Shown one piece after another: positions 31,385 through 59,879 of a stretch of 64,000 nucleotides of DNA (its first letter is position 1; every line of letters starts with the position of its first letter). Origin of the DNA: Leptospiraceae bacterium (GTDB lineage: Bacteria; Spirochaetota; Leptospiria; Leptospirales; Leptospiraceae); contig JACKPA010000012.1 of assembly GCA_024233865.1 (NCBI GenBank), positions 128,001-192,000 of the forward strand. The letters are read 5' to 3'. The notes under the pieces are model-generated. The model saw nothing but the letters and a program-made list of their open reading frames with translations. It did not search any database and was not told where the DNA came from. The translations under genes were made by a program, and so were the position numbers.

Positions 31385-31396
31385 TTGCTTACCTTT

Positions 31397-33733
31397 TTAT
31401 TCGGATAATACTTCAATAATAACAGGAAATTCTTTTAATAGATTCACAATTTTTCGAATATCATAATTTTTGGAAGCAGTCTTTAATTGCTGTGAATAAT
31501 CAGTCAGTGGCGCGATTTTATATTTTCGTGCAATATCTCCTACCTCACTGGCAAATCCTCTAATTTCCGGCATGGAGATAAACGTTTCAACTTGTTTATG
31601 AGCAGGGAGTAAGGTTTTCAGCCTTTCTACGGATTCCCAAAGAATTTCTTTTGAAATGTTTGTTTTGAATTGATTCAAATTATTCAAAAGACTATTATGT
31701 TCCGCTTTATTTTGTGATTTTAAGCTATAAGGCAGATGCTTCATCAAAATATTTATCAAGTCTTTTTTGGAAACCGGTTTTTGCATAATTGTATCAAAGC
31801 ATTGGGGCATTATTTCTATTTTGGAAGACACCGTCTGAGCTATAATTGGTATGGATTTATATTTTGGATTTTCTTTTAATTTTTTTGCTGCTTCGTCTCC
31901 ATTCATTTGGGGCATATAGATGTCCATAATGATTAAATCAAGTTGATGCTGTTCAAACATTTCCAAAGCTTCGATTCCATTTGATGCCTCTAAGATTTCC
32001 AAATTGTATTTATGCAGATAAGCTTTGAATATGTTACGATTGCTTTGAATATCATCAACTATGAGAATTGTAGCATTTTCAAATTCGATTTCATTATAAG
32101 AAAGTGATATATCTTCTTTTGTCTCTGTCTGTTGTACGGAAATGTTTTTAAAGTGGACCGTAAATTCAGAACCGTTCCCCAAAGTGCTTTTCACCTCAAT
32201 ACTACCATTCAAGGCTTCAGCCAATCTTTTGCTAATGGATAAACCAAGACCTGTTCCACCATATTTTTTGATATTTTGACTTTCTCTCTGGCGAAACGGC
32301 TCGAATATAAGTGCAATTTCTTTGTCTTCTATGCCGATTCCACTATCCTTTACACAAACATCAAAGTTAATTCTACCTGATTCCGGTTCCAATTGCCAAT
32401 GTTCTATGGATACTTTGACATAACCTCTATCCGTAAATTTAATGGCATTGCCAATTAGGTTAAACAAAATTTGGCGTAACCTGGCTTCATCAATCAAAAC
32501 ACATTCGGGAAAATCGTGAGGTATTTCAATAGGGAATTCAATACTTTTTTGATTGGCATTCATAAAGAAAACTTGTTTGATTTCTGTGAGTAGAGACTTG
32601 ATATTTGTTGCAGACTCTCTTATTTGTAAACGCCCTGCTTCTATTTTGGAAAGATCAAGAATATCGTTTATCAAATTTAGTAAATTTTTTCCGCTATTGA
32701 GTATTCCTTCGAAATAGTCAGTATATTCAGGTTTATGAGATAGTTTATCTTTTAGAATTTCAGAAAAACCAAGAATAACGTTCATGGGAGTTCGGATTTC
32801 GTGGGATATATTGGCAATAAATTCCGACTTAACCAAGTTGGCTCTTTCTGCTTCTTCTTTGGCTGTAACGAGCTCTTGTTCTATTTGCTTGCGACCACTA
32901 ATATTACGATTGAATATGGCAATCCCGTCATCCATTGGTACGACTTGATGATAATACCAACCAACTGTTTGATTGGTAATAGCTGCCTGGAATTCTCCTT
33001 CTAATGGCATGCCGGTTTCACAAACTATTTTGTACTGTTCAAAAAAGCCTTGATTGTTTTCCATTGGGAATATTTCTAAGATGCTTTTTCCAATAGCTTC
33101 TTTTTGTGAGGACATTCCAATTTCTAAAACAGCATTGCCATTTAACTCCTCGATGATAAAGTCAATGATTTCATTGTTATCATTTTGCAGGTACTTTAAA
33201 AGGTAGATTGCATCCAAGTTGGACTCAATGGCTGTTTTAAATCGTTTTTCACTCTCTTTTAGAGCTTGTTGTACTTTTTTTTGCTCGGTTATATTTATTT
33301 TAACCGCCAGAAAATGAGCGATTTCTCCGTTATTACTTATGATTGGTGATATGGTCGCACTTTCCCAAAATGTTGTACCATCCTCGCGTTTGTTTAGAAA
33401 TTCACCCTGCCACGTTTTCCCTGATAAAATTGTTTCCCAAAGTTCTTTGTAGGTTTCTTTGGGAGTATGATTTGTTTTTAAGATTCGGTGATTTTTTCCT
33501 ACTACTTCTTCCAATTGATATCCGGTTAATTTTGTGAATTGAGGATTTACATATTCTATATTTCCGTATTTATCAGTTATCGATATACTGACTGGACTTT
33601 GTACAACCAAAGTAGAAAATTTTTGTAATTCTCGCTCCAGAAATGCTTGAGAACGCTTTAATTCTTTATTTTCAGCTTCGAGCTCTTCAATTTTATTGTG
33701 CAGCAATTCTTCTATATTTTCTGAACTTGACAT
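31397..33733 (-). CDS. PAS/PAC hybrid sensor histidine kinase with C-terminal receiver domain
   Basis: Coiled-coil, two PAS regions, [10 protein letters not shown] (H-box), [12 protein letters not shown] (G2), [11 protein letters not shown]...[16 protein letters not shown] (REC). Confidence 0.8.
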
Positions 33734-33800
33734 AAACGCTATAAACCAGTGTCATGGTGAGCTTGTCGAACCATGAATTTTTTAGTTAAACTTATAGTTA

Positions 33801-34961
33801 CTATTTTTTTGATTTCTTTAAAGTAAAGTAGAATTTGCTACCTTTACCGATAGTACTTTTTACACGAATTTTTCCTTTGTTTTTTGCCACAAATTCTTTA
33901 CATAGTATCAGTCCGAGTCCAGTACCTTTTTCATTTTCTGTTCCCAGTGTGGAATGGGTTTTTTCTATCTTGAACAGATTGCTTTGCCTTTCCGGTGAAA
34001 TGCCAACACCCGTATCACTGACGCTAAGGAGGATTTTGTCATTTTCTTTCTGTTTGCAAAAGATGGTAACCACTCCACCTTTGGGCGTAAATTTAATCGC
34101 ATTGGAAATTAAATTTCTAAGTACTGTTTGGATCATATCTTTGTCCGCAAACACTTTTAAGTCTTCTGATTTGATCCTTATTTTAAGCTCAATTTGTTTG
34201 GAAATTGCAGAGGTGGTTTGATAAAGCATGGTAACATCTTTGATTAGCCACTGTATATCAAAATCAATAGGAGTGTATGCAATCTTTTTAGATTGCAGCT
34301 TGGACCAAAGTAAAAGGTTTTCCAATAATACGTATGTTTGTTTACTGCTATTGTATAGAATATTTGCCCAATATTTTATTTTTTCCGGACTAAGTTCAGA
34401 ATGGTTGTCTATTAAAAAACTCGAAATATTTACCAAAGAAGTGAACGGGCTTTTGAGATCATGAGAGATAATGGAAAAAAATTTATCCTTGGTTGCATTT
34501 AATTTTTTTAAACGCTTTGCCAAAGCTCTATATTTTTCTTTGCTTTCCTTTAATAATTTTTCTGTTTGATAACGATCTTCTATATCATGAATTATGGAAC
34601 ATAAAACTTCTTTTTTACCTACAACCATTTTGGCGCTATATACTTCTACATGGCGAATATTTCCATTGGAAAGTCGATGCCTAAAAAAGAAATGGTTTCG
34701 TTTTTCATTTTTTGCATTTTGCATTTCTGCGAGTATTTCATTAGGTGTTAAAATATTGATTTGATTTATATTCAATTTTGTTATTTGATCTATGGAATAA
34801 CCATAGTATTTGCAAGCTGCTTGGTTGGCATCAACAATGAATCCGCTTTCCGGATCAATCAAAAGCATAACTGAAAAATTATCATAAAAAAGTGTTTTGT
34901 ACCTTTGTTCGCTTTCATCAAGTTGTTGAGCAATTTTTAGTTCGTTGTTTTGGATTTTCAT
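33801..34961 (-). CDS. PAS sensor histidine kinase
   Basis: PAS segment, SIISHDLKSP (H-box), GTGLGLILCKEFVAKNKG (G2). Confidence 0.8.
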   Translation of the reverse strand: MKIQNNELKIAQQLDESEQRYKTLFYDNFSVMLLIDPESGFIVDANQAACKYYGYSIDQITKLNINQINILTPNEILAEMQNAKNEKRNHFFFRHRLSNGNIRHVEVYSAKMVVGKKEVLCSIIHDIEDRYQTEKLLKESKEKYRALAKRLKKLNATKDKFFSIISHDLKSPFTSLVNISSFLIDNHSELSPEKIKYWANILYNSSKQTYVLLENLLLWSKLQSKKIAYTPIDFDIQWLIKDVTMLYQTTSAISKQIELKIRIKSEDLKVFADKDMIQTVLRNLISNAIKFTPKGGVVTIFCKQKENDKILLSVSDTGVGISPERQSNLFKIEKTHSTLGTENEKGTGLGLILCKEFVAKNKGKIRVKSTIGKGSKFYFTLKKSKK

Positions 34962-34999: not shown

Positions 35000-36046
35000 T
35001 TAAACAACAACTTCACTAAATAGTTGAATCGTTTCTTGTTTACCATTTTCTTTGGCTAAGATAAGAGCATTTTTTTCATCTTTATTTTTTAGGTAAGTTG
35101 TGGCACCTCTTGTTAAAAACAAGTTGGCAGCTTTTGTTTTGCCGTGTTTGGCAGCTAGCATCAATACAGTATTTCCATCTTTATCCCTTGAATTTATGTC
35201 AAACCCGAAGTCTAACAATTTTTCCAATTTGGAAATGTTGTCTTCTAGGATTGCCTGAAAAAATTGAGTAAATAGACCGGCAGATAAAACGCTAAGGGTG
35301 TGTCGAAACTGGTATTTATCTGCTTCATCAAAAACACTATTTCCTTGGTTATTTCTAAGGGTGATGTCAGCACCTAAGGATAGCAAAATTTCAACCGATT
35401 CGGTGCTGTCATTGGAAACAGCAAATAGTAAAGCCGTATATCCATCCTGGTCTTTTTCGTTTATTGAACTGCCTTTTTTTACAAGAAGCCGAAGAGATTC
35501 AAAACAATTATTTTCAGCCGCCAGCATAAGAGGAGTTTTGCCTTCTACGTCTTTTGTGTCTAGCTTGGCACCATGTTCCAACAGTAATTCAATGGTTTCA
35601 ATATCTTTTGATTCTATGGCAGCATGAATAGGGTAGTTTCCATCACCACTTCTCGTATTTACATCAACTTTTTGCTTTAAAATGTGCTCTATAATACAGA
35701 TATCATTGGACAAAATAGCACGATGCAAAACCGTAAAGTTATCTTTATCCCTTTGGGTTAAGTCTACATTTTTTTGAGTTAATAAATAAACAATTTCTTT
35801 GTCTTTTTTTAGAATAGCTCCAAAAATAGGTGTATTTCCACTATTGTTGGGAAAATTAGGGTCAGAACCGTTTTCTATAAGCTTTCCCACTATTTCAATA
35901 CTTGACTCTTTGCAAGCCCAATAGAGGGGAGTTATACCATACCTGTCTCGGTAATTTAAATCTACATCTTCTCTTGAAAGAATAGCTATAACTTTATCAA
36001 TGTCATTTGCACGAATGGATTGTATAAGTACCTCTTCTTCTTTCAT
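35000..36046 (-). CDS. Ankyrin-repeat protein (~9 repeats)
   Basis: Repeated G.TPLH.A......V..LL..GAD motifs throughout. Confidence 0.8.
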   Translation of the reverse strand: MKEEEVLIQSIRANDIDKVIAILSREDVDLNYRDRYGITPLYWACKESSIEIVGKLIENGSDPNFPNNSGNTPIFGAILKKDKEIVYLLTQKNVDLTQRDKDNFTVLHRAILSNDICIIEHILKQKVDVNTRSGDGNYPIHAAIESKDIETIELLLEHGAKLDTKDVEGKTPLMLAAENNCFESLRLLVKKGSSINEKDQDGYTALLFAVSNDSTESVEILLSLGADITLRNNQGNSVFDEADKYQFRHTLSVLSAGLFTQFFQAILEDNISKLEKLLDFGFDINSRDKDGNTVLMLAAKHGKTKAANLFLTRGATTYLKNKDEKNALILAKENGKQETIQLFSEVVV

Positions 36047-36055
36047 AAAGCGACC

Positions 36056-36727
36056 CTAGAGTTCTTTGAATTCGTTGTAATATTGATTTACTTTTTTTAC
36101 ATAATTTTGGGTTTCTTCATAAGGGGGTATTCCGTTATGCTTGCGAACTGCTCCCGGACCAGCATTGTAGGCAGCTAAAGCGTGATCCCGATTTTTGAAA
36201 ATACGCATCATATCTTTTAGAAAATTTGTGCCACCTTTGATGTTTTGAGCCGGATCATAAGGATTGGAAACACCAAGTAGCTTAGCTGTTTGGGGCATTA
36301 GCTGCATCAAGCCCATTGCTCCGGCTTTTGACAAAGCTTTGGTTTTAAAGTTTGATTCTGCCTTAATTACTGCTTTTACAAGGTCTGGGTCTAAGCCTTT
36401 TGCCTTTGCTTCCGTATCAATTAATTTATTGATGGAATCCCAATTGTTCTTTTTTGATTTGGGTTGATTATGGTTTTTTTCTGACTTGGTTGTTTCTTCC
36501 ACAACCGGTTTCTGAATTTCATTCACTTTGTTTGCTTCATTTACCGGATGTGACTGATTGGTTTGACCCGTCTTAAGAGCGTTTTCCAATTCTTTCGAAA
36601 AGGACGGATTTGGTTCTTTGTTTTGAATCAGAGCAGAAGGATTTTGCTCCAATAAATTAACTTTAGAAGAGATTTCTCTAATTCTCTCCATGGTGTTGAT
36701 AAATGATTCCAGATTTTCTATCTTCAT
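36056..36727 (-). CDS. Lytic transglycosylase (SLT domain) protein
   Basis: [26 protein letters not shown] is the SLT catalytic region. Confidence 0.7.
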
Positions 36728-36923
36728 AGTTTATAATTCGGTAGTTTTTATTATGTACATCAGAAATTTTTTGCGTAAAAAAGCCAAGGAAATTCTTGCA
36801 TTTTTTTTGGGGTTTATGATCAAAAAAAATAAACGAGCTTTTTGGGGATTTCTTTTCTTGACATAGGGTAAAATTCTTTTATACCATTTGTATATGCTAA
36901 CCACTGAACAATGGAGGTTCGTA

Positions 36924-37564
36924 TGGCTTTTAGTAATTATAAAACCGTAGATGCTGTGCTTAAAGAGTTTCAAATTACCTATACCGAATCAAATTTTGTT
37001 ATAGAAACAGACTTTTCTATTTCGGACTATTTTCGAGAAGATTTGGAATTTATCAGAGAAGAAGGAGCACCCGAATGTTCGGAATATGCTATTTGTGAAA
37101 ACTTGATTTACCCACTATTAAAAGAAGTTTGGAAAAAATACTATAGTAAGTTTATGTTATGGAGCCACAAGTCACTCAATTATGATGAAAAATTATCAGG
37201 TTTTCCGGAGTATATTCTATCTAAACGTTCTCTGCTAGGAAAAATAGTCTTTGATCAGCCTTATTTTATGTTGGTAGAAGCAAAGCAAGATAATTTTGAA
37301 GTAGGGTGGGCACAATGTTTAGTTGAAATGTTTGCTGCCCAGAAATTAAATGAAAATCCGGATCAGGAGATATTTGGGATTACTTCCAATGGCTCTGTTT
37401 GGCAATTTGGAAAGTTAAAAGGTAGTCTTTTTACTAAAAATAAGAAATATTACTTACTAGATGATCTGAACAAGCTTTTGGGAGCGATTAATTATATATT
37501 TTTTCAGTGTGAAGTATTACTAGGTGGGGAAGAGAGGAGTGAACCTGAAAATGCTATGTGCTAG
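36924..37564 (+). CDS. HsdR-N-like PD-(D/E)xK protein, paralog 2
   Basis: GFPEYILSK...FMLVEAKQDNFEVGWAQCLVEMFAAQ...GITSNGSVWQF. Confidence 0.5.
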
Positions 37565-37580
37565 AATATTTAGGAGAATA

Positions 37581-38084
37581 ATGAAATTTATATTGATACC
37601 TGTATTATTGTTTTTATCATGTATAGGCATAGGATTTAAGGAGACCACGCCAGAACAACAACTTTTTCAAGCTACATCAGATGGTAATATAAAAAAAGCG
37701 AAACAACTTATATCAGAAGGAGCAAATATAAATGAGAGTCGAGCATTAATAGTTGCTTCATACAGAGGAAGAACAGAACTTGTCAACTTATTAATCAGTT
37801 ATGGAGCAGATGTAAATGTTAAATCTGATGTTTATGAGACTACGCCACTGTTTGCTGCGTCAGAACATGGTGGTAGAACAGATATTATGAAAATATTAAT
37901 CCAAGCTGGAGCTGACCCAAATTTCAAAGATCAATATGGACGAACACCTCTGTATTTTGCTTATAGGAGGAAAAATGCTGAAGAAATTAGAATATTAAAA
38001 CAAGCAGGTGCTAAAGAGCTTAATCTGAAGCAAACAAGAGATCAATGTAAATATTGTATTGGTTGCATGTGTCCTGTTGAATAA
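37581..38084 (+). CDS. Ankyrin-repeat lipoprotein
   Basis: LLFLSCIGI lipobox-like signal; three or four ankyrin repeats; RBS aggag upstream. Confidence 0.65.
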   Translation: MKFILIPVLLFLSCIGIGFKETTPEQQLFQATSDGNIKKAKQLISEGANINESRALIVASYRGRTELVNLLISYGADVNVKSDVYETTPLFAASEHGGRTDIMKILIQAGADPNFKDQYGRTPLYFAYRRKNAEEIRILKQAGAKELNLKQTRDQCKYCIGCMCPVE

Positions 38085-47085: not shown

Positions 47086-48015
47086 ATGAAAAAGCTAGGA
47101 CTATTATTTTCAGTTTTAGCGCTGACATTAACGATGTCAGCCACAGGAATTTCGGCAGGAGCATTAAGCGGTCAATGCTACGTTTTGGTCCATGGAATAT
47201 TGGGCTTTGATGATACAAACGGACTTGCAAATGGTCTTGTTAAATATTGGGGTGGATTAGACGGATACCTCAGAGGTCAAGGAGCTAAAGTTGCTACACC
47301 AGGAAGTTCGGCTGCCAATGACTTGGCTACAAGAGCAGGTCAGATTAAGAGCTTTTTGGAAGGAACTTCAAGCAATCCAGGCTGGAGAATTACCAATGGT
47401 TGTGCTAAAGTGCATCTAATTGGTCACTCTCAAGGTGGTCTAGTTTCCCGATATTTGGTAAAAAACCTAAGTTATTCAAGCAAAGTTGCTTCCGTAACTT
47501 CGGTAAATACTCCTCATAAAGGAAGCCCTGTTGCTGATGTTGTTTTGGCTGTGATTCCTAGTTGGTTGCAACCGTTTGTGAATGTTGTTCTTAGCACATT
47601 TGCAACAATAATGTATCGTGATGGTCGTCCGCAAGACGTAGTTGCAATGGGAAAATCGTTAACGGTTTCGTATTGTAACACTTTTAATTCCAGTACACCA
47701 AACGTGTCTGGAATTAGCTATTACTCTTATGGATCAACAATGGCTTGGGCTGACCTAATCCAACATCCACTTATGGGTATTACCTACCCTGCAACATGGG
47801 CAGGTGGATTGGCTTATGGACAAGGTTCTGCAAATGATGGTATTGTTCCTGAATCTTCCCAAAAGTGGGGAACATGGAAAGGTGGACCAAGCACATATTG
47901 GTATGCCACAGGGATAGATCATTTAGAAGCAACCAATTTTGAGTGGTGGGGACAAAACTACTACGATGTTAATGGCTATTACTTAAAAATAGCTAAAAAC
48001 GCTGCAGGTCTGTAG
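47086..48015 (+). CDS. Secreted triacylglycerol lipase (alpha/beta hydrolase, bacterial lipase family I-like), copy A
   Basis: Signal peptide, YVLVHGILGF (oxyanion), IGHSQGG (GxSxG), 309 aa. Confidence 0.7.
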   Translation: MKKLGLLFSVLALTLTMSATGISAGALSGQCYVLVHGILGFDDTNGLANGLVKYWGGLDGYLRGQGAKVATPGSSAANDLATRAGQIKSFLEGTSSNPGWRITNGCAKVHLIGHSQGGLVSRYLVKNLSYSSKVASVTSVNTPHKGSPVADVVLAVIPSWLQPFVNVVLSTFATIMYRDGRPQDVVAMGKSLTVSYCNTFNSSTPNVSGISYYSYGSTMAWADLIQHPLMGITYPATWAGGLAYGQGSANDGIVPESSQKWGTWKGGPSTYWYATGIDHLEATNFEWWGQNYYDVNGYYLKIAKNAAGL

Positions 48016-48037
48016 TAAGGAGTACCCTCCAATTTAT

Positions 48038-48068
48038 TTAACCGGGAGCGAAAACTCCCGGTTTTGAA
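48038..48068 (+). terminator. Rho-independent terminator
   Basis: ccgggag-cgaaaa-ctcccgg hairpin followed by TTTT. Confidence 0.6.
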
Positions 48069-48331
48069 TCTAATTTTGCAAAAGTACGTCTTATGTCCCA
48101 TGGTTTTTTTTAAAAACTTTTAGTTCGAAATTTTAGGATACAAAAAAAGAAAGAAAACAAATTCAACAAATTCTTATTTCCATTTTAGGAAACTTTCGAC
48201 CTATCTTGATTAAGTGTTTTGGAAATAAATTACTTAACAAAAACTTTCCTTATAAATATTTAATTAATTCTTGTATTTTTTTTATTTTTTTAGTCCTATG
48301 GTAATTAGTAAGGTAAATTAGGAGAACTATA

Positions 48332-49261
48332 ATGAAAAAGCTAGGACTATTATTTTCAGTTTTAGCGCTGACATTAACGATGTCAGCCACAGGAATTTCG
48401 GCAGGAGCATTAAGCGGTCAATGCTACGTTTTGGTCCATGGAATATTGGGCTTTGATGATACACACGGACTCGCAGGTGGTCTTGTTAAATATTGGGGCG
48501 GATTAGACGGATACCTCAGAGGTCAAGGAGCTAAAGTTGCTACACCAGGAAGTTCGGCTGCCAATGACTTGGCTACTAGAGCAGGTCAGATTAAGAGCTT
48601 TTTGGAAGGAACTTCAAGCAATCCAGGCTGGAGAATTACCAATGGTTGTGCTAAAGTGCATCTAATTGGTCACTCTCAAGGTGGTCTTGTTTCCCGATAT
48701 TTGGTAAAAAACCTAAGTTATTCAAGCAAAGTTGCTTCCGTAACTTCGGTGAATACGCCTCATGTAGGAAGTCCTGTTGCTGATGTTGTTTTGGGTGTTA
48801 TTCCTAGTTGGTTGCAACCATTTGTGAATGTTGTTCTTAGCACATTTGCAACAATAATGTATCGTGATGGTCGTCCGCAAGACGTAGTTGCAATGGGAAA
48901 ATCGTTAACGGTTTCCTATTGTAAAGCTTTTAATAAGAGTGCACCAAATGTATCCGGACTTAAATACTACTCTTACGGATCAAATATGGCTTGGGCTGAC
49001 CTAATCCAACATCCACTTATGGGTCTTACCTACCCTGCAACATGGGCAGGTGGATTGTTTTACGGACAAGGTTCGGCAAATGATGGTATCGTTCCATTGT
49101 CTTCCCAAAAATGGGGAACATGGAAAGGTGGACCAAGCACATATTGGTATGCCACAGGGATAGATCATTTAGAAGCAACCAATTTTGAGTGGTGGGGACA
49201 AAACTACTACGATGTTAATGGCTATTACTTAAAAATAGCTAAAAACGCTGCAGGTCTGTAG
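48332..49261 (+). CDS. Secreted triacylglycerol lipase, copy B (tandem duplicate)
   Basis: 309 aa, >90% identical to copy A, including ~190 bp of upstream sequence. Confidence 0.7.
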   Translation: MKKLGLLFSVLALTLTMSATGISAGALSGQCYVLVHGILGFDDTHGLAGGLVKYWGGLDGYLRGQGAKVATPGSSAANDLATRAGQIKSFLEGTSSNPGWRITNGCAKVHLIGHSQGGLVSRYLVKNLSYSSKVASVTSVNTPHVGSPVADVVLGVIPSWLQPFVNVVLSTFATIMYRDGRPQDVVAMGKSLTVSYCKAFNKSAPNVSGLKYYSYGSNMAWADLIQHPLMGLTYPATWAGGLFYGQGSANDGIVPLSSQKWGTWKGGPSTYWYATGIDHLEATNFEWWGQNYYDVNGYYLKIAKNAAGL

Positions 49262-49282
49262 TAGGAGAGTATCCTCCAATTT

Positions 49283-49314
49283 AATTAGCCGGGAGTTAAT
49301 TCTCCCGGTTTTAA
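49283..49314 (+). terminator. Rho-independent terminator
   Basis: ccgggag-ttaatt-ctcccgg hairpin followed by TTTT. Confidence 0.6.
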
Positions 49315-49338
49315 AAAATTTTAATTTTGTAAAAATAT

Positions 49339-50385
49339 ATGAATAAAAAAATAATTATTATATTTACTTTGTCTTTTTTATTGATACTGCTTTTTTTGCT
49401 TTATAAGGGTGGAACAGATTCTTCCAAAAAAGTTGTAAAAGCAAATATTACCGAGGATGGAAAACCGGTTAGCAATTTTAGGGAAAATGAGTTTCCTTTT
49501 ATGCCAATGGCACTTTATCCGCACCAGGAGTATGAATCTATGCTCAACAGTACTGATTTTATTAATTATGATGAGTTTATGGAAGGGATAAAGACGGGAA
49601 AACGTAACTTCGTTTGGGAAATCTGGGCTTTACGAGAAAAATGTCCTGCAGATTATACGTTGGATCATTGCAACCACCATATACTAGGGATTATTGAACA
49701 AAACTACTCTTCCCCTATAAAAGAGGAATTAAAAAGGATTTTTACAGCATATTTCAAGTATGAGCTAAATATAAGAGAAACCGGTATTGGTAAATCGCAA
49801 GGTGAATTTACCGAAAGGTATCAAGACCTTAAGAAAATAAGGCGAGAGTTTTTTAGTGACGAAGATGCCAATTTGGTTTTTGGAATGGAAGAAGCCCAAA
49901 TTGAATTTATGGAAGCAGCTGCCAATTTTGCAAAAGAATCGGAAAAGCTAACGGGAGCGGAGAAGGTTAAAAAATACGAAACTCTAAAAAAGCAAATCTA
50001 TGGTGCTTATTATGACGCTATGGTAGAAAGAGAAGACAAATACCAAAACTACCAAACAGAGTTGAATTTTAAGGAAGAAGATTTCAAAAACCTTTCTGAA
50101 ACCGAAAAGACACAAGCATTGCGATCCATCCAAGAAAAGCACTTTGGAAAAGAGGAAGTAGAGAGGATGCTGGCGGAAGCCAAAAAAGAAGAAGACCTTC
50201 GGTTGGAGCAGGAAAACAAGATTAAAGAATACGAATCCAAAGAAAAAGAATTTTTATCCGATAACGAGAACCTTTCTCCGGAAGAAAGGGATAAAAAGCT
50301 TTCAGAACTTAGAGAAAGTATATTGGGAAAAGAAGAAGCTGAAAGCTATATTAATCGGAAAAATATAGAAAATATTTCCAAATAA
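49339..50385 (+). CDS. Putative lipase-specific foldase (Lif-like), membrane-anchored
   Basis: N-terminal TM anchor then an all-helical charged domain, sited directly downstream of the lipase genes as in lipA-lif operons. Sequence similarity to Lif could not be verified by eye. Confidence 0.4.
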   Translation: MNKKIIIIFTLSFLLILLFLLYKGGTDSSKKVVKANITEDGKPVSNFRENEFPFMPMALYPHQEYESMLNSTDFINYDEFMEGIKTGKRNFVWEIWALREKCPADYTLDHCNHHILGIIEQNYSSPIKEELKRIFTAYFKYELNIRETGIGKSQGEFTERYQDLKKIRREFFSDEDANLVFGMEEAQIEFMEAAANFAKESEKLTGAEKVKKYETLKKQIYGAYYDAMVEREDKYQNYQTELNFKEEDFKNLSETEKTQALRSIQEKHFGKEEVERMLAEAKKEEDLRLEQENKIKEYESKEKEFLSDNENLSPEERDKKLSELRESILGKEEAESYINRKNIENISK

Positions 50386-50947: not shown

Positions 50948-52576
50948 TTGCTTTATTTTGTATTGTTTAACATGATGAAAAATATGGGAGGGGAGTTCAA
51001 AATTAATGGTTTGGGCTCAAATTGGTCACTCACTTTTAAAAATTATATGAAATTTATTCGTTCTGTAGTTTACATTTTATTATCTATAATTGTTTTGGAT
51101 CAGTTTTTTTTTAATTATCTGATATGGAAATTACCTAACGAATCTGCTTGGAATACAAACCACTTTTTTAATTTCATATACGAGTACAGACGAATCAAAC
51201 AAACTCCCAAATCAAAACCGAGAATTTTGTTCATTGGTTCGAGTATATCTTATTATTCTACAGACAAAGAATTGTTAGAGAACTATTTGAAAGAAAAAAC
51301 CGGAAACCAATACGACGTGGAATATTTTTCGTATGCCGGAATGACACCTTTGGATGCCTACCTGACTTTTGATAAAATTGTTGATTTAAAGCCAGACCTA
51401 ATCGTTTTTCCGATTAACTTTATTGACCTTCGACTCCACCGAGCATATGTTTTAGATCCCAAGAACCAAAATAGTAGTATTGATGAAAAAATATTACTAG
51501 TGGACGCTTTGGACTTTTTGGAAGCTCAGCAGTCAAAATACGCTTTTTCTTGGGAAGCACTAACTGCTTTTTATCCTTATTTGAATTTGAATCAAAATGC
51601 AAAGTATTTGGCATCTACACTGTTTTTCTTTTATCGTTATAGAGAGATTTATTTAAAAAATCTTCAACATTTGTACAACCATAGATTTGGTCGAAATACG
51701 AGTTATCACGGATACGCTGGAGTGCAGATTCCCGAAAGAATCAATTCGCTTGGCTGGACTGGAGAAAAGTTTTCTTTTTACCCTTTGAGTTATATGCAAA
51801 AACAGGGTTTTTATATACAAATTGTCCCGGAAATTCTTCTAAAAGGAAAATTAGTTGTTACCATAACCAATAAAAACGGGTTCAAACAAGTAGAAAAATT
51901 CGCAAGTTCCGGTTGGAAACGGATTCAATTAAAAAGTGAATTCATCCAGCAAAAGTCTCTTGTTACCGCGTCTTTGTCTAATACATGGATACCTTATGAG
52001 GCAAAAGAAGATCGTTTTGACCACAGCAAGGATATGTTGGGGGTAAGGTTGCAACAAACTTTTGGTTTGGAAAAGCCAGAGAACGGACAGCAATACACAC
52101 GCGTAGAAAGATTGGAAGACCTTCGCTATATTGGAATGAATGATTCTGATTATGAAAACTATTTCTATTTTAGGCTTTTGGACGATCTTGAGCATAGACC
52201 CGGAATTGCCTATTTACACGCTTTAAAAGATGCCAAAATAAGAGTTGCCAGGGAGCCTTTTGTTCCAACTCTGCACTTAAAATATTTAAAAATGTTTTCT
52301 GAGCTTTCTAACAAAAATAAAATCAAACTATTGGTTATCAATAACCCCGAAAATCCGATTTCTCTTTCCTGGTATGAGCAGTCTAATTGGTATGAAGATC
52401 ACATAAATTATTTAAGAGGTTTGGACTCCAGGTATTGCAAATTTGTAGACTTAAGAAACCATTTAAAAATGCAGGATTTTAGTGATTATCACCATTTTAC
52501 GTACCCTGGTATGGTCAAAATGACTCCGATTTATGGAAATTTGATTGCGGATTTTAGTCAAAATGATAAAAATTAA
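50948..52576 (+). CDS. Hypothetical membrane-anchored protein, possibly SGNH/DUF1574-like
   Basis: 542 aa, an N-terminal TM helix, an ILFIGSSISYYS block reminiscent of GDSL. Weak support. Confidence 0.3.
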   Translation: MLYFVLFNMMKNMGGEFKINGLGSNWSLTFKNYMKFIRSVVYILLSIIVLDQFFFNYLIWKLPNESAWNTNHFFNFIYEYRRIKQTPKSKPRILFIGSSISYYSTDKELLENYLKEKTGNQYDVEYFSYAGMTPLDAYLTFDKIVDLKPDLIVFPINFIDLRLHRAYVLDPKNQNSSIDEKILLVDALDFLEAQQSKYAFSWEALTAFYPYLNLNQNAKYLASTLFFFYRYREIYLKNLQHLYNHRFGRNTSYHGYAGVQIPERINSLGWTGEKFSFYPLSYMQKQGFYIQIVPEILLKGKLVVTITNKNGFKQVEKFASSGWKRIQLKSEFIQQKSLVTASLSNTWIPYEAKEDRFDHSKDMLGVRLQQTFGLEKPENGQQYTRVERLEDLRYIGMNDSDYENYFYFRLLDDLEHRPGIAYLHALKDAKIRVAREPFVPTLHLKYLKMFSELSNKNKIKLLVINNPENPISLSWYEQSNWYEDHINYLRGLDSRYCKFVDLRNHLKMQDFSDYHHFTYPGMVKMTPIYGNLIADFSQNDKN

Positions 52577-54422
52577 TAAAAGATATTTTATACTACCACT
52601 TGACATATTTTTTATGTTTGTATCTTATTTTTTAGCTCACTTGATACGATACGAAAATTATTCTTTTTTAGTGGATTTGAAAAGTTTTATAGTTTCTGCC
52701 TTGATTGTAGTTGGTTTTAGAACGTTGATATTTGTGTTTTCAAGTATTTACAAATCACTATGGGCTTATGCTTCTATTCATGACCTTTTGGAAATAATTA
52801 AAACTACATTGTTGTCGTCTCTTGTTTCAACAACTGCTTTGCTTTTTTATAACCGTTTTTCGCAACAATCTCGCATGGTTCCGATTTTGGATACCTTGAT
52901 ACTACTTAGTATTTTGTGCTTTAGGAGTTTTTCTTGGCGAATTTTTCGGGATCAGTATTTGAATCAAAAAACAAAAGTGGGAAAGCCTACAATTTTGATA
53001 GGAGCTGGTAAATTAGGAGCAATGCTTCTTTCTGAAATCAGGCGGCAACCGGAACTTAATCTGAATCCGGTTGGTTTCTTGGATGATGACAATAACAAAA
53101 TAGGTGCTTATATCTACGGAATTCCAGTAATTGGAAAAATTGACGACTTGATTCGCATACTACACCTTTATTCTATTCAAGAAACGATTATAACGATGTC
53201 CAATGTTTCCGGGAAAGTGATTAGCGATATTTTGAAAGTATGTGGTGAAAATCATGTAAACGTTAGGATTTTACCTTCTATTACCGAGATTTTCTATGGA
53301 AAAAATTTTAACCTCAACCAACTGCGGGAAATTCGAGTAGAAGACTTGCTTGGGAGGGAAGCCGTTGATTTGGAAATCGAGTCTATTCGATTGTATTTGC
53401 AAAACAAAGACATTTTGATAACCGGAGCGGGTGGGTCTATTGGTAGTGAAATTGCACGTCAAGTTTCTATGTTCAATCCGAATAGCGTTGTTTTGTTGGA
53501 TAATGCAGAAACTCCTTTGTATGAAATTGATTATGAATTGGGAAAAAAACATCCGAATATTAAATTTAAAACGGTAATTGCAGACGTAAAAAACCTATCT
53601 CGTTTGAATTCTATTTTTGAAAAATACCATCCGATGGTAGTGTTTCATTGTGCTGCCTATAAACACGTTCCTTTGATGGAGATAAACCCTTCGGAAGCCG
53701 TTATCAATAACGTGATGGGTACTAAAAATATTTGTGATGTTTCCAGGCTTTTTGGCATTGAGAAATTTGTCATGATTTCTACCGACAAAGCGGTTCGACC
53801 TGTGAATATAATGGGTGCCTCCAAAAGAGCTGCGGAGTTGTATATACAATATATCGCTCCGACTTCCAAAACGGAATTTGTCACCGTTCGCTTTGGGAAT
53901 GTTTTGGGTTCAAACGGGAGTGTAATTCCAAGATTCAGGGAGCAGATAGAGAAGGGCGGACCTGTCACAGTAACACATCCGGACATTATTCGATATTTTA
54001 TGACAATTCCGGAAGCATCTCAACTTGTTTTGCAAGCCGGAAGCATGGGGGAAAGAGGTGAGATATTTATTTTGGATATGGGAGAACCTGTCAAGATTTT
54101 GGATATGGCAGAGGAAATGATTCGACTGTCCGGCTACCAACCGTATAGAGATATTGATATTGTTTTTACGGGACTAAGACCAGGAGAAAAATTGTATGAA
54201 GAGCTGCTTTTGGATTTGGAAGGAATCAAAGAAACTCATCATCCCAAAATTAGAATTGCCACTCACATTGAAAATCCGGATCGATTAACCTTTATCAATA
54301 AGTTAAATTTACTTTTTTCCTATGCAAAGCAAAACAAAGATAAGGAATTATATGATTTGTTCAAGGATATTATTCCAGAATATCAAAAACACCAAGACTA
54401 TTACATGACCATATCCAAATAG
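52545..54422 (+). CDS. Polysaccharide biosynthesis protein CapD/PglF/WbpM family (membrane-bound NDP-sugar 4,6-dehydratase/epimerase)
   Basis: N-terminal four TM helices, LIGAGKLGAML and ILITGAGGSIGSEI Rossmann motifs, MISTDKAV...YxxxK. Confidence 0.8.
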   Translation: MRILVKMIKINKRYFILPLDIFFMFVSYFLAHLIRYENYSFLVDLKSFIVSALIVVGFRTLIFVFSSIYKSLWAYASIHDLLEIIKTTLLSSLVSTTALLFYNRFSQQSRMVPILDTLILLSILCFRSFSWRIFRDQYLNQKTKVGKPTILIGAGKLGAMLLSEIRRQPELNLNPVGFLDDDNNKIGAYIYGIPVIGKIDDLIRILHLYSIQETIITMSNVSGKVISDILKVCGENHVNVRILPSITEIFYGKNFNLNQLREIRVEDLLGREAVDLEIESIRLYLQNKDILITGAGGSIGSEIARQVSMFNPNSVVLLDNAETPLYEIDYELGKKHPNIKFKTVIADVKNLSRLNSIFEKYHPMVVFHCAAYKHVPLMEINPSEAVINNVMGTKNICDVSRLFGIEKFVMISTDKAVRPVNIMGASKRAAELYIQYIAPTSKTEFVTVRFGNVLGSNGSVIPRFREQIEKGGPVTVTHPDIIRYFMTIPEASQLVLQAGSMGERGEIFILDMGEPVKILDMAEEMIRLSGYQPYRDIDIVFTGLRPGEKLYEELLLDLEGIKETHHPKIRIATHIENPDRLTFINKLNLLFSYAKQNKDKELYDLFKDIIPEYQKHQDYYMTISK

Positions 54423-54454
54423 TAAAAGAATATCTAACCCAGGGTCAATTTATA

Positions 54455-54560
54455 GAATTGACTATTTTTTTGATAGAATTGACTATTTTTTTGATAGAAT
54501 TGACTATTTTTTTGATAGAATTGACTATTTTTTTGATAGAATTGACTATTTTCTAGTTGA
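54455..54560. repeat. Direct tandem repeat with a 21-bp unit (gaattgactatttttttgata), about 4.7 copies
   Basis: Perfect copies at 54455, 54476, 54497 and 54518, plus a partial copy. It sits in the intergenic region upstream of a histidine-kinase gene. Confidence 0.8.
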
Positions 54561-54604
54561 TAATTATTCTCATTAAAAAAATAATAGCATTCAGGGTGAA
54601 TTTT

Positions 54605-55780
54605 ATGAATCCTCGCTGCCATGAGCTTGAGAATAGAATCAAAGATTTGGAACTCGAATTGAGTAACCTCAAATCAAACAAATATGCGGAAACTTTGTTT
54701 TGGCAAGGTATTGAAAAATCTATTCCAAGTGGTATTTCCGTGATTGACGATACGGGAAAACAAGTATATGTAAACCAGTCGTTCTGCAATTTGGTAGGCT
54801 GGGAAGAGCAGGAACTATTAGAAAAATATCCGCCTTATCTGTATTGGTCCGAAGCAGAAATTGAAAATATTAAAACTACCTTTCAAAAAACTCTCAAAGG
54901 TAAAGTTCCAAAAGAAGGTTTTGAACTACTTTTTTGTAATAAATCGGAGAAATTGATTCCTGTTCGGGTAATTATCTCTTCGTTTACTATAGATAATAAT
55001 AGAACATTTTGGTTAGCAAACGTAATTGATATAACCGGGGAGAGACAAGCAGAACTGGTCATTCAACAACAAAATTCAAAATTAATAGAACTCAATGCCA
55101 CAAAAGATAAGCTTTTTTCTATCATTGCCCATGATTTAAAATCTCCTCTCAGTGGATTTCTCTTATTAATGGAATTGATGTTAACGAATATTGAGAAATA
55201 TAGTTTAAATGAAATTAAAGGGCATAATAAAGCCCTACATGAATCCGCAAGAAATGTCTACGAGTTGTTAGAAAGTCTATTGGATTGGTCTAGAATGCAA
55301 AGAGGTCTGATAGAGTTTCATCCGGATGTGATTGTTTTATCTTTTCTCATAAAAAGAAATATAAAAGTTTTGAGTGTTTTTGCCAGGGTGAAAGATATTG
55401 AAATTGTCAATCTTGTTTCGGATAGCTTGCAAATTAGAGCAGATGCTTCTATGGTGAATACTATTATTAGAAATTTGATTTCCAATGCAATAAAGTTCAC
55501 TCCCAAAGGAGGGAAGGTTGTAGTATCCGCAGAAGAAAAAGATGATAAACTACTGCTGTCCGTTAGGGATTCTGGAATAGGTATGGATAAAAATATAGTT
55601 GATAATTTATTTGGTGCGAATCCAGCTGAACCTCGTATTGGCACGAATTTTGAAATTAGTACAGGTTTGGGATTAATTATTTGCAAAGAGTTTATTATTA
55701 AACATTCCGGTGAGATTTGGGTGGAAAGCGAGGTGGGCAGGGGCAGTACTTTTTATTTTACATTGCCAAAAGTGAATTAA
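54605..55780 (+). CDS. PAS sensor histidine kinase
   Basis: Coiled-coil, PAS, SIIAHDLKSP (H-box), STGLGLIICKEFIIKHSG (G2). Confidence 0.8.
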   Translation: MNPRCHELENRIKDLELELSNLKSNKYAETLFWQGIEKSIPSGISVIDDTGKQVYVNQSFCNLVGWEEQELLEKYPPYLYWSEAEIENIKTTFQKTLKGKVPKEGFELLFCNKSEKLIPVRVIISSFTIDNNRTFWLANVIDITGERQAELVIQQQNSKLIELNATKDKLFSIIAHDLKSPLSGFLLLMELMLTNIEKYSLNEIKGHNKALHESARNVYELLESLLDWSRMQRGLIEFHPDVIVLSFLIKRNIKVLSVFARVKDIEIVNLVSDSLQIRADASMVNTIIRNLISNAIKFTPKGGKVVVSAEEKDDKLLLSVRDSGIGMDKNIVDNLFGANPAEPRIGTNFEISTGLGLIICKEFIIKHSGEIWVESEVGRGSTFYFTLPKVN

Positions 55781-55794: not shown

Positions 55795-57066
55795 ATGAAC
55801 ACTACCAAAGAGAAAGAGAGAAGAAGGCTAGCCCAAACGCAATTCCTTAAGGAGAATACAAATTTTGATGAATTGCCTTTGAAAGATATAAAAACATTAT
55901 TCTACGAACTGCAAATACACCAGATTGAACTGGAAATGCAGAATGAAGAGCTACGAAATACTCAGCTTGAACTGGAAACGACTCGCGAAAAGTTTTTTGA
56001 TCTCTACAATCAGGTTCCGGTTGGTTATCTCACCCTATCAGAAAACGGATTGATAACCGAAGCAAATTTAACTTCGGCTAATCGTTTGGGTGTCACAAGA
56101 AACCTACTACTAAATCAACCGATCACTCGTTTTATTCTGAAAGAAGATCAAGATGTCTACTATCTTAAAACGAGACTTCTTATTAAAACCCAAAAAAAGC
56201 AGCAGTTTGAAATAAGAATGACTGGAAGGGAAGGTAATACATTTTGGGTAGATTTTGCTTGTGTCCCGGTAAAAACAAATGATGATGGTTCTTATTATAG
56301 AGCAATTTTTGAAGATATAACAGATCGTAAAAATGCAGAATTCACCATTCAGCAGAAAAATATAGAACTACAAGAACTCAACGTTACAAAGGATAAGTTT
56401 TTTTCCATTCTTTCCCACGATCTAAAAGGACCGATGGGCAGTATTGTATCCTTATTGGAAATGTTGCAAAACGATTGTGAAGACAGACAGGAAAAAATGT
56501 TATCTCTCGCTTACCAAAGTGCCAAAAGGACATATACGTTATTGGAAGAACTTCTGCTTTGGGGGAGATTACAAATAAATAAAGTCCAATTCAATTCACA
56601 AATGATTGATCTAAAATGGCTAATAAACGATGTTGTTTTATTTCAAAAATATGTTGCTGCGGATAAAAAGGAAATCAAAATCCAAACAAACTTAACTGAA
56701 ACGGTAGTTGTTTTTTGTGATATTGCAATGGTTAAAGTTGTGATACAAAATTTATTGTCCAATGCCATCAAATTTTCTAATCCCGGTGGAGTGGTGACAG
56801 TCGGCTGCAAACCACAGGAAGGCAATAAGATGCTGTTTTATGTCTCGGACACCGGTATCGGGATTCCTCCTCAAGAAGGAGAAAAATTATTTCTAATAGA
56901 TCAATTTTTTTCCACTAAAGGAACGGGTGGTGAACAAGGAACAGGTCTCGGACTAATTCTTTGCAAAGAATTGATCGAAAAACATGGTGGAGCTATTTGG
57001 ATAGAAAGTGAAACGGACAAAGGCAGTAGCTTTTATTTTACATTACCGACAAAGGAATTTACATAA
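55795..57066 (+). CDS. PAS sensor histidine kinase
   Basis: Coiled-coil, PAS/PAC, SILSHDLKGP (H-box), GTGLGLILCKELIEKHGG (G2). Confidence 0.8.
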   Translation: MNTTKEKERRRLAQTQFLKENTNFDELPLKDIKTLFYELQIHQIELEMQNEELRNTQLELETTREKFFDLYNQVPVGYLTLSENGLITEANLTSANRLGVTRNLLLNQPITRFILKEDQDVYYLKTRLLIKTQKKQQFEIRMTGREGNTFWVDFACVPVKTNDDGSYYRAIFEDITDRKNAEFTIQQKNIELQELNVTKDKFFSILSHDLKGPMGSIVSLLEMLQNDCEDRQEKMLSLAYQSAKRTYTLLEELLLWGRLQINKVQFNSQMIDLKWLINDVVLFQKYVAADKKEIKIQTNLTETVVVFCDIAMVKVVIQNLLSNAIKFSNPGGVVTVGCKPQEGNKMLFYVSDTGIGIPPQEGEKLFLIDQFFSTKGTGGEQGTGLGLILCKELIEKHGGAIWIESETDKGSSFYFTLPTKEFT

Positions 57067-57338
57067 ATAACGTGAGTTCGACGTAAGGAATAATGTTATA
57101 AAAATAATAAGGGTGAACACAGGGGTTCACCCCTACGCCCAAAAATACCATAGGCTTTGTAGGGGCAATCCCCCGGTGGTTGCCCTTTAGGTGAAAATAA
57201 AAATGTTATATCGAACTGACGTTAAATAACTAATATAACGTGAGTTTTTGTAAATTACCGTAGCTAAGCAGTAAAGCAAAAATAGTTGTGAAAATGAATT
57301 TCAGACAGGATTTCAGGATTTACATGATTTGTAGTACT

Positions 57339-59879
57339 TTATTTCGATATTTCCACAAATGTTAGAACTACACCTTCTATCACATTTTCGATGGTACGAT
57401 AGGGCTGTATTCGCATCGAATATTTTTGTCCGTCCAAATTCCAGACCTCGGCTTCTTTGGGGATTAATGTATCCAAAACCTTTTGTATATCTTGGATGAG
57501 TGTCTGGTAATTCATTAATCGTGAAACTATATCGCTAACAGGTCTGCCAATGTCGCTCTGAATCAAATTGATAATCTTTGTAGCTGCGGGCGTAAAACGT
57601 TTAATGTCCAATTTATGATTCAAAAAGATGGTACCTATACCGGTAGATGCAAGCAAATTATTCATATCGTTGTTTACTTGTGAGAGTTCTTCTATCTTTT
57701 TTTGAAGTTCCGTATTTACTGTAGTTAATTCTTCGTTTACGGATTGAATTTCCTCTTTCGAGGTTTCTAGCTCTTCGTTTGCAGACTGTAGTTCTTCATT
57801 TGCGGATTGCAATTCCTCGTTGATTGACTTAAGTTCTTCGTTTGATGTTTCAAGTTCTTCTATGGTTGTATTTAGATATTCATCTTTGGTTTGAATGGTT
57901 CTTTCCAGTTCTATTATCCACTGATCCTTATCGCTAATAGGCGAAATTTCTATATTTTGCGATTCTTTTTTGTCAGAACATTCTTCAAACGCCACCAAAA
58001 TGAAAATATCGGAAGAGTCCGACTTCTTAAGAGGGTGAACAAGCAAATTGATTAAATAAGATTGTCTGTCTTCTCCCTTAACCCGTAAATTATCGTAGCG
58101 TACAAAAACGCCAAGAGAAATCACCTTACTTACGGCAGAGATTAATTCCATTTTCAATCCTTCACGTGCCATTTGAGTAATATTTAGGTTCGCCTCTCCC
58201 AGAGCTGGCTCAAGGTATTTACCCGTTCGTCCATGGATATACAAGACTTCAAAATTGGAATTGATTAGGACGGAAGGAGGTGCATAATGGTTTAATAAAA
58301 AGCGTTCTAATAATTCTTTTGTATTTGATTTTTTTTCTAAATAAACAGTATTCTTCTTTTGTTTGATTGCCAATTCGTCTATAAACGGTTGTTTAATCAT
58401 TCTTATTATGCCCCCAGAATTTGGAGTTTCTATTTTTTGGTATAATTTCGACTTTTTTTCAATTGCCCTAAAAATATCATCCAATTCTCTGATAGATTCA
58501 GAGTTTCCCAAAACAAGGAAACCGTTTGAATTTAATGCGTAATGAAAGAGCAGAATTACCTTTTTCTGTAATTCGGTGGTAAAATAAATAAGCAGATTCC
58601 GGCAACTGATTAAGTCTATTTTTGTAAAAGGCGGGTCTTTGATTATATCGTGTTTTGCAAATACGATCATGTCGCGGATAACTTTATGTATCCGATAGGT
58701 ATGGTTTTCAAGGATAAAATACTTTGACAAACGTTGGGGCAATACATCAACAGCAATACTGTCCAAAAAAATTCCGGTTCGAGCTTTTTCGATGGAAATT
58801 TCATCAATGTCTGTCGCAAATATTTGTACAAAGTAGTTTTGCTTTTTGTTCTCCATGTATTCTTGTAGCAAAATGGCAAAAGAATATGCTTCCTCACCGG
58901 TTGAACAGGCTGGAATCCATATACGTATGGTAGAGCTTGGCGGTTTGTCAAATAATTTTGGAATCAAACCTTCTTTAAAGAAATCAAAAACATCTGAATT
59001 GCGAAAAAAACTCGTAACTCCTATCAACAATTCTCTAAATAGAATTTGTACTTCTGTCTGATTGGTTTGTAAATAGAGGATGTAGTTTTTTATATTTTCG
59101 AACTTATTTATTACCATTCTTCTTTGAACGCGACGAGCTATGGTATTTAATTTATAGCTAGAAAAATCGTGCCCAGTTTGATTTCTTATAATTAAATAAA
59201 TCTTTCTCATTAAATTTTCTGGAAAATACTTAGGATTTGCTAATAGGTAAGTTTTCTTTTGGAATGTACTTTGAACATAATTTAGTAATTGTTCAAACAT
59301 TTGTTCGGGAGGTAAAACGGAATCAACCAAACCTGTACTTAGGGCACTTCGGGGCATTCCGTCAAATTTTGCTGATTCGGGTGACTGAACCATAACCAAT
59401 CCTCCTTCTCCTTTAATGGCTTTTAATCCTAAGGTTCCGTCAGTCCCTGTTCCCGACATGATTATACATATAGACTTTTCGTACAAACTTTCTGCCAAGG
59501 AACGAAAGAAGAAATCAATAGGTAAATACAATCTTTTTTCAGGCATAAGTTTCAATAGTTGAAGACTACCATTAAAAAAAGCCATATTACAATTGGGAGG
59601 AATAATATAAACGCAATTCGGTCGAACCTTCATTCCGTCTTCGATCAAAAATACATTCATTTGGGTATACAGCTTTACAAGGTCGCTTAGTATGTTCTTG
59701 TAGTCGGGAGACAAATGTTGAACTACAACAAAAGCCATTTCACATTCTTTTTCGGTAGGTATTGATTTAAAAAATAATTCAATAGCCTCTAATCCGCCCG
59801 CAGAGGCACCTATTCCAATAATAGGAAAGTCTATTGTATCCGGATTGATTGTTTTGAACTCTTTTGATTCTATTTGCAT
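57339..59879 (-). CDS. Chemotaxis CheB methylesterase + CheR methyltransferase fusion with coiled-coil and C-terminal PAS domain
   Basis: IIGIGASAGGLEAIELFF (CheB), WIPACSTGEEAYSFAILL (CheR SAM site), an EELxSxNEEL repeat coiled-coil, then a PAS domain. Confidence 0.8.
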   Translation of the reverse strand: MQIESKEFKTINPDTIDFPIIGIGASAGGLEAIELFFKSIPTEKECEMAFVVVQHLSPDYKNILSDLVKLYTQMNVFLIEDGMKVRPNCVYIIPPNCNMAFFNGSLQLLKLMPEKRLYLPIDFFFRSLAESLYEKSICIIMSGTGTDGTLGLKAIKGEGGLVMVQSPESAKFDGMPRSALSTGLVDSVLPPEQMFEQLLNYVQSTFQKKTYLLANPKYFPENLMRKIYLIIRNQTGHDFSSYKLNTIARRVQRRMVINKFENIKNYILYLQTNQTEVQILFRELLIGVTSFFRNSDVFDFFKEGLIPKLFDKPPSSTIRIWIPACSTGEEAYSFAILLQEYMENKKQNYFVQIFATDIDEISIEKARTGIFLDSIAVDVLPQRLSKYFILENHTYRIHKVIRDMIVFAKHDIIKDPPFTKIDLISCRNLLIYFTTELQKKVILLFHYALNSNGFLVLGNSESIRELDDIFRAIEKKSKLYQKIETPNSGGIIRMIKQPFIDELAIKQKKNTVYLEKKSNTKELLERFLLNHYAPPSVLINSNFEVLYIHGRTGKYLEPALGEANLNITQMAREGLKMELISAVSKVISLGVFVRYDNLRVKGEDRQSYLINLLVHPLKKSDSSDIFILVAFEECSDKKESQNIEISPISDKDQWIIELERTIQTKDEYLNTTIEELETSNEELKSINEELQSANEELQSANEELETSKEEIQSVNEELTTVNTELQKKIEELSQVNNDMNNLLASTGIGTIFLNHKLDIKRFTPAATKIINLIQSDIGRPVSDIVSRLMNYQTLIQDIQKVLDTLIPKEAEVWNLDGQKYSMRIQPYRTIENVIEGVVLTFVEISK

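Follow-up and report, generated by a model that had tools for sequence, protein, structure and literature searches.

A probably young, copy-number-variable 21-bp tandem array upstream of two PAS sensor kinase genes in an uncultured Leptospiraceae bacterium

The window analysed here, a stretch of 64,000 nucleotides from an uncultured Leptospiraceae bacterium with a G+C content of about 34%, contains a perfect 21-bp tandem array in the spacer between a terminator-like hairpin and a PAS kinase gene. On balance, this array is best regarded as a young variable-number tandem repeat (VNTR) generated by slippage or unequal recombination, which is near-neutral or at most a geometric tuner of the kinase promoter. 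The parts of this account carry different weight: it is very probable that the array is a VNTR produced by slippage, the view that it is effectively neutral falls just short of being probable, and a measurable tuning of expression by copy number can be put forward only tentatively.

54452–54552, no strand assigned: 21-bp tandem array of 4.8 perfect copies (Tandem Repeats Finder, exact pattern matches and repeat-family search, D1/D2)

Tandem Repeats Finder assigns this array a period of 21, 4.8 copies, 100% matches, no indels and a score of 202, and as the runner-up in the 64-kb window scores 76, it is the sole strong tandem array there. The unit GAATTGACTATTTTTTTGATA has exact matches at 54455, 54476, 54497 and 54518, which are the starts of the full units, and a fifth, partial copy (GAATTGACTATTTT) occupies 54539–54552, while the periodicity begins at the ATA at 54452, 3 nt before the first full unit. 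The first-pass annotation had placed a perfect 21-bp array here, which Tandem Repeats Finder shows to be real, but the end it gave (54560) lies 8 nt too far and the start is at 54452; residues 54553–54560 (CTAGTTGA) are unique sequence outside the array. Four or more matches to the unit occur in none of 100 dinucleotide-preserving shuffles. No site with up to 3 mismatches to the unit exists beyond the array within the window, and local alignment detects no older or degenerate copies in the flanks, whose scores are no better than those of shuffled flanks. The array, which makes up 101 of the 182 bases between the preceding CapD-like gene and the first kinase gene (HK1), therefore has the head-to-tail units of high identity, the single locus and the unique flanks that define a VNTR or minisatellite. 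A recent expansion, as suggested earlier from the identity of the copies, agrees with the perfect units, the flanks free of old diverged copies and the whole-unit difference between alleles described below. Replication slippage or unequal recombination between such identical 21-bp units, the established mechanism for VNTRs, would have made and resized the array.

Copy number was compared among contigs retrieved by exact matches to the HK1 protein and to its cluster relatives; five of them were informative, all from metagenome assemblies. Contig L001 (GCA_020440835.1) carries 4.8 copies as in the window, and over 7.2 kb the two are separated by 13 SNP or indel events. Contig L006 (ERZ27309380, megahit k141) carries 4.8 copies with the left boundary included and one further SNP. 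As the 4.8 copies recur in these independent contigs, the array is not an artefact of one assembly. Contig L002 (ERZ27309373, megahit k141) has 1.8 copies in a 38-nt array, and its HK1 protein and flanks are identical to those of the window.

54452–54514, no strand assigned: 63 bp (three units) missing from the 1.8-copy allele of L002 (pairwise alignment; the gap could equally well be placed elsewhere in the array)

The alignment of the window with L002 shows a single clean gap of 63 columns (three units), 2 SNPs, a TA indel and nothing else. Both SNPs and the indel are shared with L001, and the L002 haplotype equals the L001 haplotype apart from the length of the array. The TA dinucleotide (57265–57266, in the spacer between the second kinase gene, HK2, and a CheB-CheR fusion gene) is present in the window and absent in L001 and L002. 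The 4.8-copy allele is found on three haplotypes and the 1.8-copy allele on one of those, and by parsimony the latter would be a derived contraction of three units. Since 4.8 copies are kept on three haplotypes, the array cannot be called hypermutable over this timescale, and the occurrence of the same allele on three SNP backgrounds argues for only moderate instability. The first-pass annotation had offered a copy-number-variable tract as one of its readings and a comparison among strains as the check; copy number does differ, as the window, L001 and L006 have 4.8 copies and L002 has 1.8. The change amounts to exactly 63 bp in whole units between conserved, identical flanks as in a VNTR, with the short allele coming from a single short-read contig. 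An exact lookup of HK2 returned no match, because the window differs from GCA_020440835.1 in the HK2 gene.

The remaining contigs break within the array. Logan k31 contigs (SRR12358675 and SRR12358676) end exactly 30 nt into it, L025 from the left and L004 and L026 from the right, and the arrays sampled there are at least 51 nt long, as a 38-nt array does not contain any repeated 30-mer. Contig L003 ends 55 nt into the array, which is consequently at least 76 nt in that sample. These contigs represent three further samples, and each of them ends in the array exactly at its k-mer length. A lookup of the CapD-like cluster yielded only a Logan contig that ends 30 nt into the array. These broken ends and the metagenomic origin of every assembly are what would be expected if the array, or the difference in its copy number, had been created by a de Bruijn-graph assembler looping through periodic sequence, and the 38-nt array of L002 equals a minimal loop traversal for k ≤ 39. 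Such an artefact is nonetheless very unlikely, as three assemblies with different pipelines and SNPs agree on 4.8 copies, the array of 101 nt is shorter than k = 141 such that single k-mers span it in L006, and L002 and L006 differ despite the same assembler and adjacent accessions. A collapse confined to the short allele of L002 is also unlikely, because the usual effect of loops of this kind is a break in the contig and not a loss of length, as seen in L003, L004, L025 and L026, all four of which are broken.

Three short members of the 90% identity cluster of HK1 (P0121–P0123) were set aside as mis-clustered, being unrelated pstB/phosphate-transporter fragments (L005 and L007–L011). This cluster (P0001) includes 41–45-aa N-terminal fragments of pstB/ABC ATPases from gut-metagenome contigs, which is a clustering artefact.

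The array follows a polysaccharide biosynthesis gene, whose stop codon is at 54420–54422, and precedes two kinase genes on the same strand.

52563–54422, plus strand: CapD/Polysacc_synt_2-type polysaccharide biosynthesis gene, 619 aa (PF02719, E = 7e-120; gene call in L001/L013)
54605–55780, plus strand: HK1, cytoplasmic PAS-HisKA-HATPase sensor kinase, 391 aa (Pfam)
55795–57066, plus strand: HK2, second PAS-HisKA-HATPase kinase, 423 aa (Pfam)

The downstream kinases named in the earlier annotation are thereby recovered by Pfam as a PAS-HisKA-HATPase pair at 54605–55780 and 55795–57066. HK1, which is preceded by a Shine-Dalgarno-like AGGGTGA at 54593–54599, is listed by NCBI as [quoted passage not shown] in two MAGs, and it shares 33% identity with HK2 (BLASTP). 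The two genes are separated by 14 nt and are probably co-transcribed. Both proteins contain neither transmembrane nor receiver domains, and are orphan cytoplasmic kinases. The neighbouring LB_356 family is a Leptospira family. Pfam scans of nearly all ORFs of at least 150 aa identified no DNA-binding response regulator (LytTR, OmpR, NarL or other) in the 64 kb, and the only receiver domains in the window are fused to kinases at 30263–33733.

A second group of kinases lies on the minus strand at 30263–34961 and comprises a REC-HisKA-HATPase protein, a hybrid kinase that combines PAS and receiver domains, and a PAS kinase of 386 aa that shares the architecture of HK1, bringing the totals of the window to five kinases and no DNA-binding regulator. 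Convergent toward the kinase pair on the minus strand (57339–59879) is a gene for a fusion protein of 846 aa composed of CheB methylesterase, CheR methyltransferase, a coiled coil and PAS_10, in which the window differs from GCA_020440835.1 by clustered SNPs and an indel of 3 nt at 57813–57967.

A unit of 21 bp corresponds to seven codons, and open frames do cross the array. The minus-strand ORF at 54434–54622 encodes 62 aa with the repeat (NSQFYQK)x5 and is open from an ATG start, the plus-strand frames IDYFFDR and LTIFLIE are also open across the array, and a gene caller placed a 41-aa fragment over it at the edge of the L006 contig. However, the minus-strand ORF, whose start lies antisense within HK1, lacks a Shine-Dalgarno sequence. 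No ATG, GTG or TTG is available to start the IDYFFDR frame, and the LTIFLIE frame could start only at the TTG of the units themselves, giving about 32 aa. Complete contigs have no gene call over the array, and the 41-aa fragment is absent from the protein collection. A coding repeat is thus extremely improbable.

The left edge of the array overlaps a hairpin that begins 20 nt past the stop codon of the CapD-like gene.

54443–54471, plus strand: terminator-like element, a 9-bp AT-rich hairpin (54443–54451 paired with 54455–54463, loop ATA) followed by A and T7 (54465–54471)

In the hairpin, GGTCAATTT from the left flank is base-paired to GAATTGACT in the first unit. This unit contributes both the 3' arm and the T-run, and the repeat unit as a whole can be read as hairpin 3' arm, T-run and GATA. 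The predicted RNA fold has an energy of -7.7 kcal/mol (z = -2.1), with 6 of 200 shuffles folding as well. From its sequence the element looks like a weak AT-rich intrinsic terminator for the CapD-like gene, but it contains only 2 G-C pairs, below the minimum of 3 in the consensus terminator scan, and was not called by it; the number of terminator consensus matches equals that of shuffles in this AT-rich DNA. It may be asked whether the array acts at the level of RNA, with the repeated 3' arm and U-tract forming a reinforced or tunable insulator which sets read-through into HK1 and HK2. This reading draws on the position of the hairpin and its U7 20 nt after the stop codon, on the make-up of the unit from a 3' arm and a U-tract, and on the lack of a second terminator-like site in the intergenic spacer. 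Against it, a 5' partner arm exists for the first unit only, later units fold weakly (two of them reach -4.1 kcal/mol with z = -1.6), the spacer as a whole is not significantly structured as RNA (z = -1.5), the hairpin, with just 2 G-C pairs, fails the scan, and no Rfam family matches. An insulator is accordingly judged improbable.

The other end of the array adjoins two promoter-like sequences.

54542–54585, plus strand: two overlapping sigma-70-like promoter candidates for HK1 (consensus scan, chance-level matches)

The first candidate consists of TTGACT (54542, in the last partial unit), a 17-bp spacing and TATTCT (to 54570), and the second of TTGATA (54557), a 17-bp spacing and AATAAT (to 54585). 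TTGACT is present in every unit, and a -10-like partner exists for the last, partial unit only. Consensus matches to sigma-70 across 20 kb are at chance level (63 against 66.6 in shuffles), and in Leptospira consensus promoter prediction is unreliable and 5'UTRs are short (PMC5243855).

54465–54552, plus strand: phased T-tracts with predicted intrinsic curvature (T7 at 54465, 54486, 54507 and 54528; T4 at 54549)

These tracts recur at exactly 21 bp throughout the array. As the first-pass annotation stated, this period equals two helical turns, which holds trivially, and A/T-tracts of at least 4 bp are repeated in helical phase as in curved DNA elements, the curvature itself being predicted. 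Among all 130-bp segments of the 64 kb, the array has the strongest curvature in a dinucleotide wedge model (end-to-end/contour ratio 0.25; window mean 0.94; 1.8-copy allele 0.885). Here the ranking is trustworthy and the magnitude is not, as the model overestimates absolute bending, that of a phased-A6 control included. Artificial arrays of period 16 and period 26 are straight in the same model.

For the young VNTR favoured here, these features outline how copy number may act. Each unit would add two helical turns and one T7 tract, so that a change in copy number would lengthen or shorten the DNA that lies upstream of roughly -60 and alter its intrinsic curvature, and would leave the helical phase and the core promoter unchanged. 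The first unit, which contains the hairpin 3' arm and the T-run, is kept in both alleles, as are the last ~1.8 units near the candidate promoter, and the units gained or lost between the alleles are internal ones only. Any effect on HK1 and HK2 would be expected to be graded and based on geometry (through an UP-element or curved DNA, in the manner of a "rheostat") rather than on/off, and it may be nil.

The first-pass annotation had also proposed an array of sites for a response regulator or another transcription factor, which none of the tests bears out: the copies do not differ at any of the 21 positions, no further locus with the unit turned up in the sequences searched, and no DNA-binding regulator is encoded in the 64 kb. 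As all 21 positions are identical in all copies, there is no signature of a conserved core with a free spacer. The OmpR/PhoB-type half-site reading was dropped because the internal 10/11-bp periodicity of the unit is weak (6 of 21 matches at a shift of 10).

The most specific form of the proposal concerns LytTR-type regulators, which bind as dimers and whose sites are 9–10-bp direct repeats with an 11–12-bp AT-rich spacer and a 21-bp period upstream of the promoters of kinase operons (PMC2766830). In this reading, which is considered unlikely, the array would be a set of AgrA/ComE/SilA-like response-regulator sites, in which a two-repeat site has been amplified to five, raising occupancy and the gain of the kinase operon. 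Within its period of 21, the unit does consist of a core of 10 bp (GAATTGACTA) and an AT-rich spacer of 11 bp (TTTTTTTGATA), which is a match of geometry only. The candidate -35 TTGATA begins 9 bp downstream of the proximal core (54539–54548), and the shortest allele still has exactly two cores 21 bp apart. The array thereby resembles the sites of AgrA, ComE, PlnC and SilA in its ~10-bp repeats, AT-rich spacer and 21-bp period, but known sites consist of two imperfect repeats with a conserved core, whereas the array contains up to five perfect 21-bp copies, and known systems encode the regulator beside the kinase, whereas none is found within the 64 kb analysed here (PMC2766830). The spacer is as identical as the core in every copy, which is a signature of duplication and not of selection on contact bases, and even the short allele repeats 17 perfect bases rather than an imperfect 9–10-mer. 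Neither the operon nor the rest of the 64 kb encodes a DNA-binding response regulator, and no second site is present in the window, where the 2 matches to an 18-mer at 3 mismatches are close to chance (0.75 expected). No syntenic orthologue of HK1 is available for a check on the conservation of the sites. An extension of this reading, in which LytTR-like sites amplified by slippage provide a heritable gain control that sets, stepwise, the induction of an orphan pair of cytoplasmic PAS kinases between strains of a free-living Leptospiraceae species, is more doubtful still than the insulator; if true, it would make the array a contingency locus whose target is signal-transduction capacity and not a surface antigen.

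The unit appears to be confined to this locus in the collections searched. The closest full-length relative of HK1 (P0010) shares 46% identity and is not syntenic, such that a comparison of the spacer between species is impossible. A degenerate 21-mer scan, with a pattern covering the unit and the right junction, gave 5 single matches in 185,579 GTDB species genomes, 6 single matches in JGI metagenomes and none in IMG/VR, where the matches are chance occurrences in unrelated taxa and flanks and the source species is absent from the collections scanned. The spacer has no match in 72,556 plasmids (blastn) and belongs to no Rfam family. Iterons, a partition centromere or a plasmid origin were rejected as candidates, as no Rep or Par protein is encoded nearby (Pfam detects no rep or par genes in the 64-kb window), the neighbours are chromosomal housekeeping and signalling genes, and no plasmid matches.

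Considered as a VNTR with at most a structural effect, the array can be compared with several known systems. Phased A-tract curved DNA occurs upstream of the plc promoter of Clostridium perfringens, and by analogy the T-tracts of the array may be likened to it as an element acting through structure in the absence of a dedicated regulator. The senX3-regX3 operon of M. tuberculosis, which encodes a two-component system, is reported to contain MIRU minisatellites (Supply et al. 1997, cited in PMC4641467). MIRUs are 46–101-bp dispersed elements at about 40 loci, and in this operon they lie between the kinase and regulator genes. Both MIRUs and the present array are variable-number tandem repeats tied to two-component-system genes, but MIRUs are dispersed and situated between kinase and regulator genes, whereas the array has a 21-bp unit at a single locus upstream of the kinases.

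Leptospira genomes contain many slippage-type VNTRs (PMC4641467). Those used for MLVA in L. interrogans (Majed et al. 2005; Salaun et al. 2006; PMC4641467) come from the same bacterial family as the array, have conserved flanks and, like the array, vary in copy number by strain, the mechanism for the MLVA loci being slipped-strand mispairing (PMC4641467). They have no assigned function and come from pathogenic L. interrogans, with no amplification from saprophytes (PMC4641467), whereas the array is from an uncultured Leptospiraceae MAG and its unit is unrelated to any sequence in the collections searched.

Tandem repeats in M. tuberculosis promoters also vary in copy number, as in lpdA-glpD2 (58 bp), cysG-efpA (54–56 bp) and dop (PMC12817950). 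They share with the array an intergenic position just upstream of the start of an operon, near-perfect head-to-tail units and exact whole-unit changes between close strains which are obscured by short-read assembly, and they too are proposed to alter promoter strength (PMC12817950). The M. tuberculosis unit (54–58 bp) holds a whole promoter, and its copies multiply promoters (PMC12817950), whereas the 21-bp unit contains only a -35-like hexamer and a T-tract, and its internal copies are not promoters on their own. In H. pylori, the length of a T-tract tunes sabA through DNA geometry (PMC4081817). This "rheostat" is, like the array, slippage-prone, rich in T-tracts and located beside a -35 region (a candidate one in the array), and in both cases the proposed action is through local DNA structure or UP-like alignment without a dedicated regulator (PMC4081817). 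The sabA tract varies as a homopolymer by single bases, which rotates the upstream DNA relative to the promoter (PMC4081817), whereas the array changes in steps of 21 bp and keeps the phase.

If copy number tunes expression, the array would be a minisatellite setting the dose of sensor kinases, an example outside pathogens, and could also serve to tell strains of this uncultured Leptospiraceae lineage apart. For the present, the locus mainly documents a polymorphic VNTR at which contigs break and whose length may be misreported by short-read assemblies, and it neither opens nor settles a long-standing question.

Several further features of the window were recorded. At ~12000–14000 both the GC skew and the gene orientation switch sign, the genes being on the minus strand as far as 13651 and on the plus strand from 13979 onward, and the flanking genes encode a methyltransferase and an aspartate-semialdehyde dehydrogenase and are not origin genes. 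Ankyrin-repeat proteins, which are unusual in bacteria outside host-associated lineages, are encoded at 35000–38084 (348 aa, minus strand; 186 aa, plus strand) on either side of an SLT transglycosylase gene. Two tandem paralogous genes for lipase-like alpha/beta-hydrolases of 309 aa each are located on the plus strand at 47086–50385 and are followed by a lipase chaperone of the proteobacterial type (Lif, PF03280).

At the left end of the window, the regions 29–1817 and 5488–7277 form a direct repeat of at least 1.8 kb with 94–100% identity, about 5.46 kb apart and with several single-base indels. The minus strand across 1–8200 contains a chain of short ORFs matching an Eco57I/MmeI methylase, a TaqI_C specificity domain and the PADLOC type IIG REase-MTase, and the region has the appearance of a type IIG restriction-modification gene that was duplicated and frameshifted, or it possibly reflects homopolymer errors of a long-read assembly. 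The adjoining minus-strand gene at 8250–11582 encodes a 1110-aa fusion of PLD(HKD) and an SNF2 helicase (PADLOC "HKD+Snf2" C3a139, E = 1.6e-121, with weaker matches to DrmD and BrxH), and its position beside the fragmented type IIG gene suggests a defence island.
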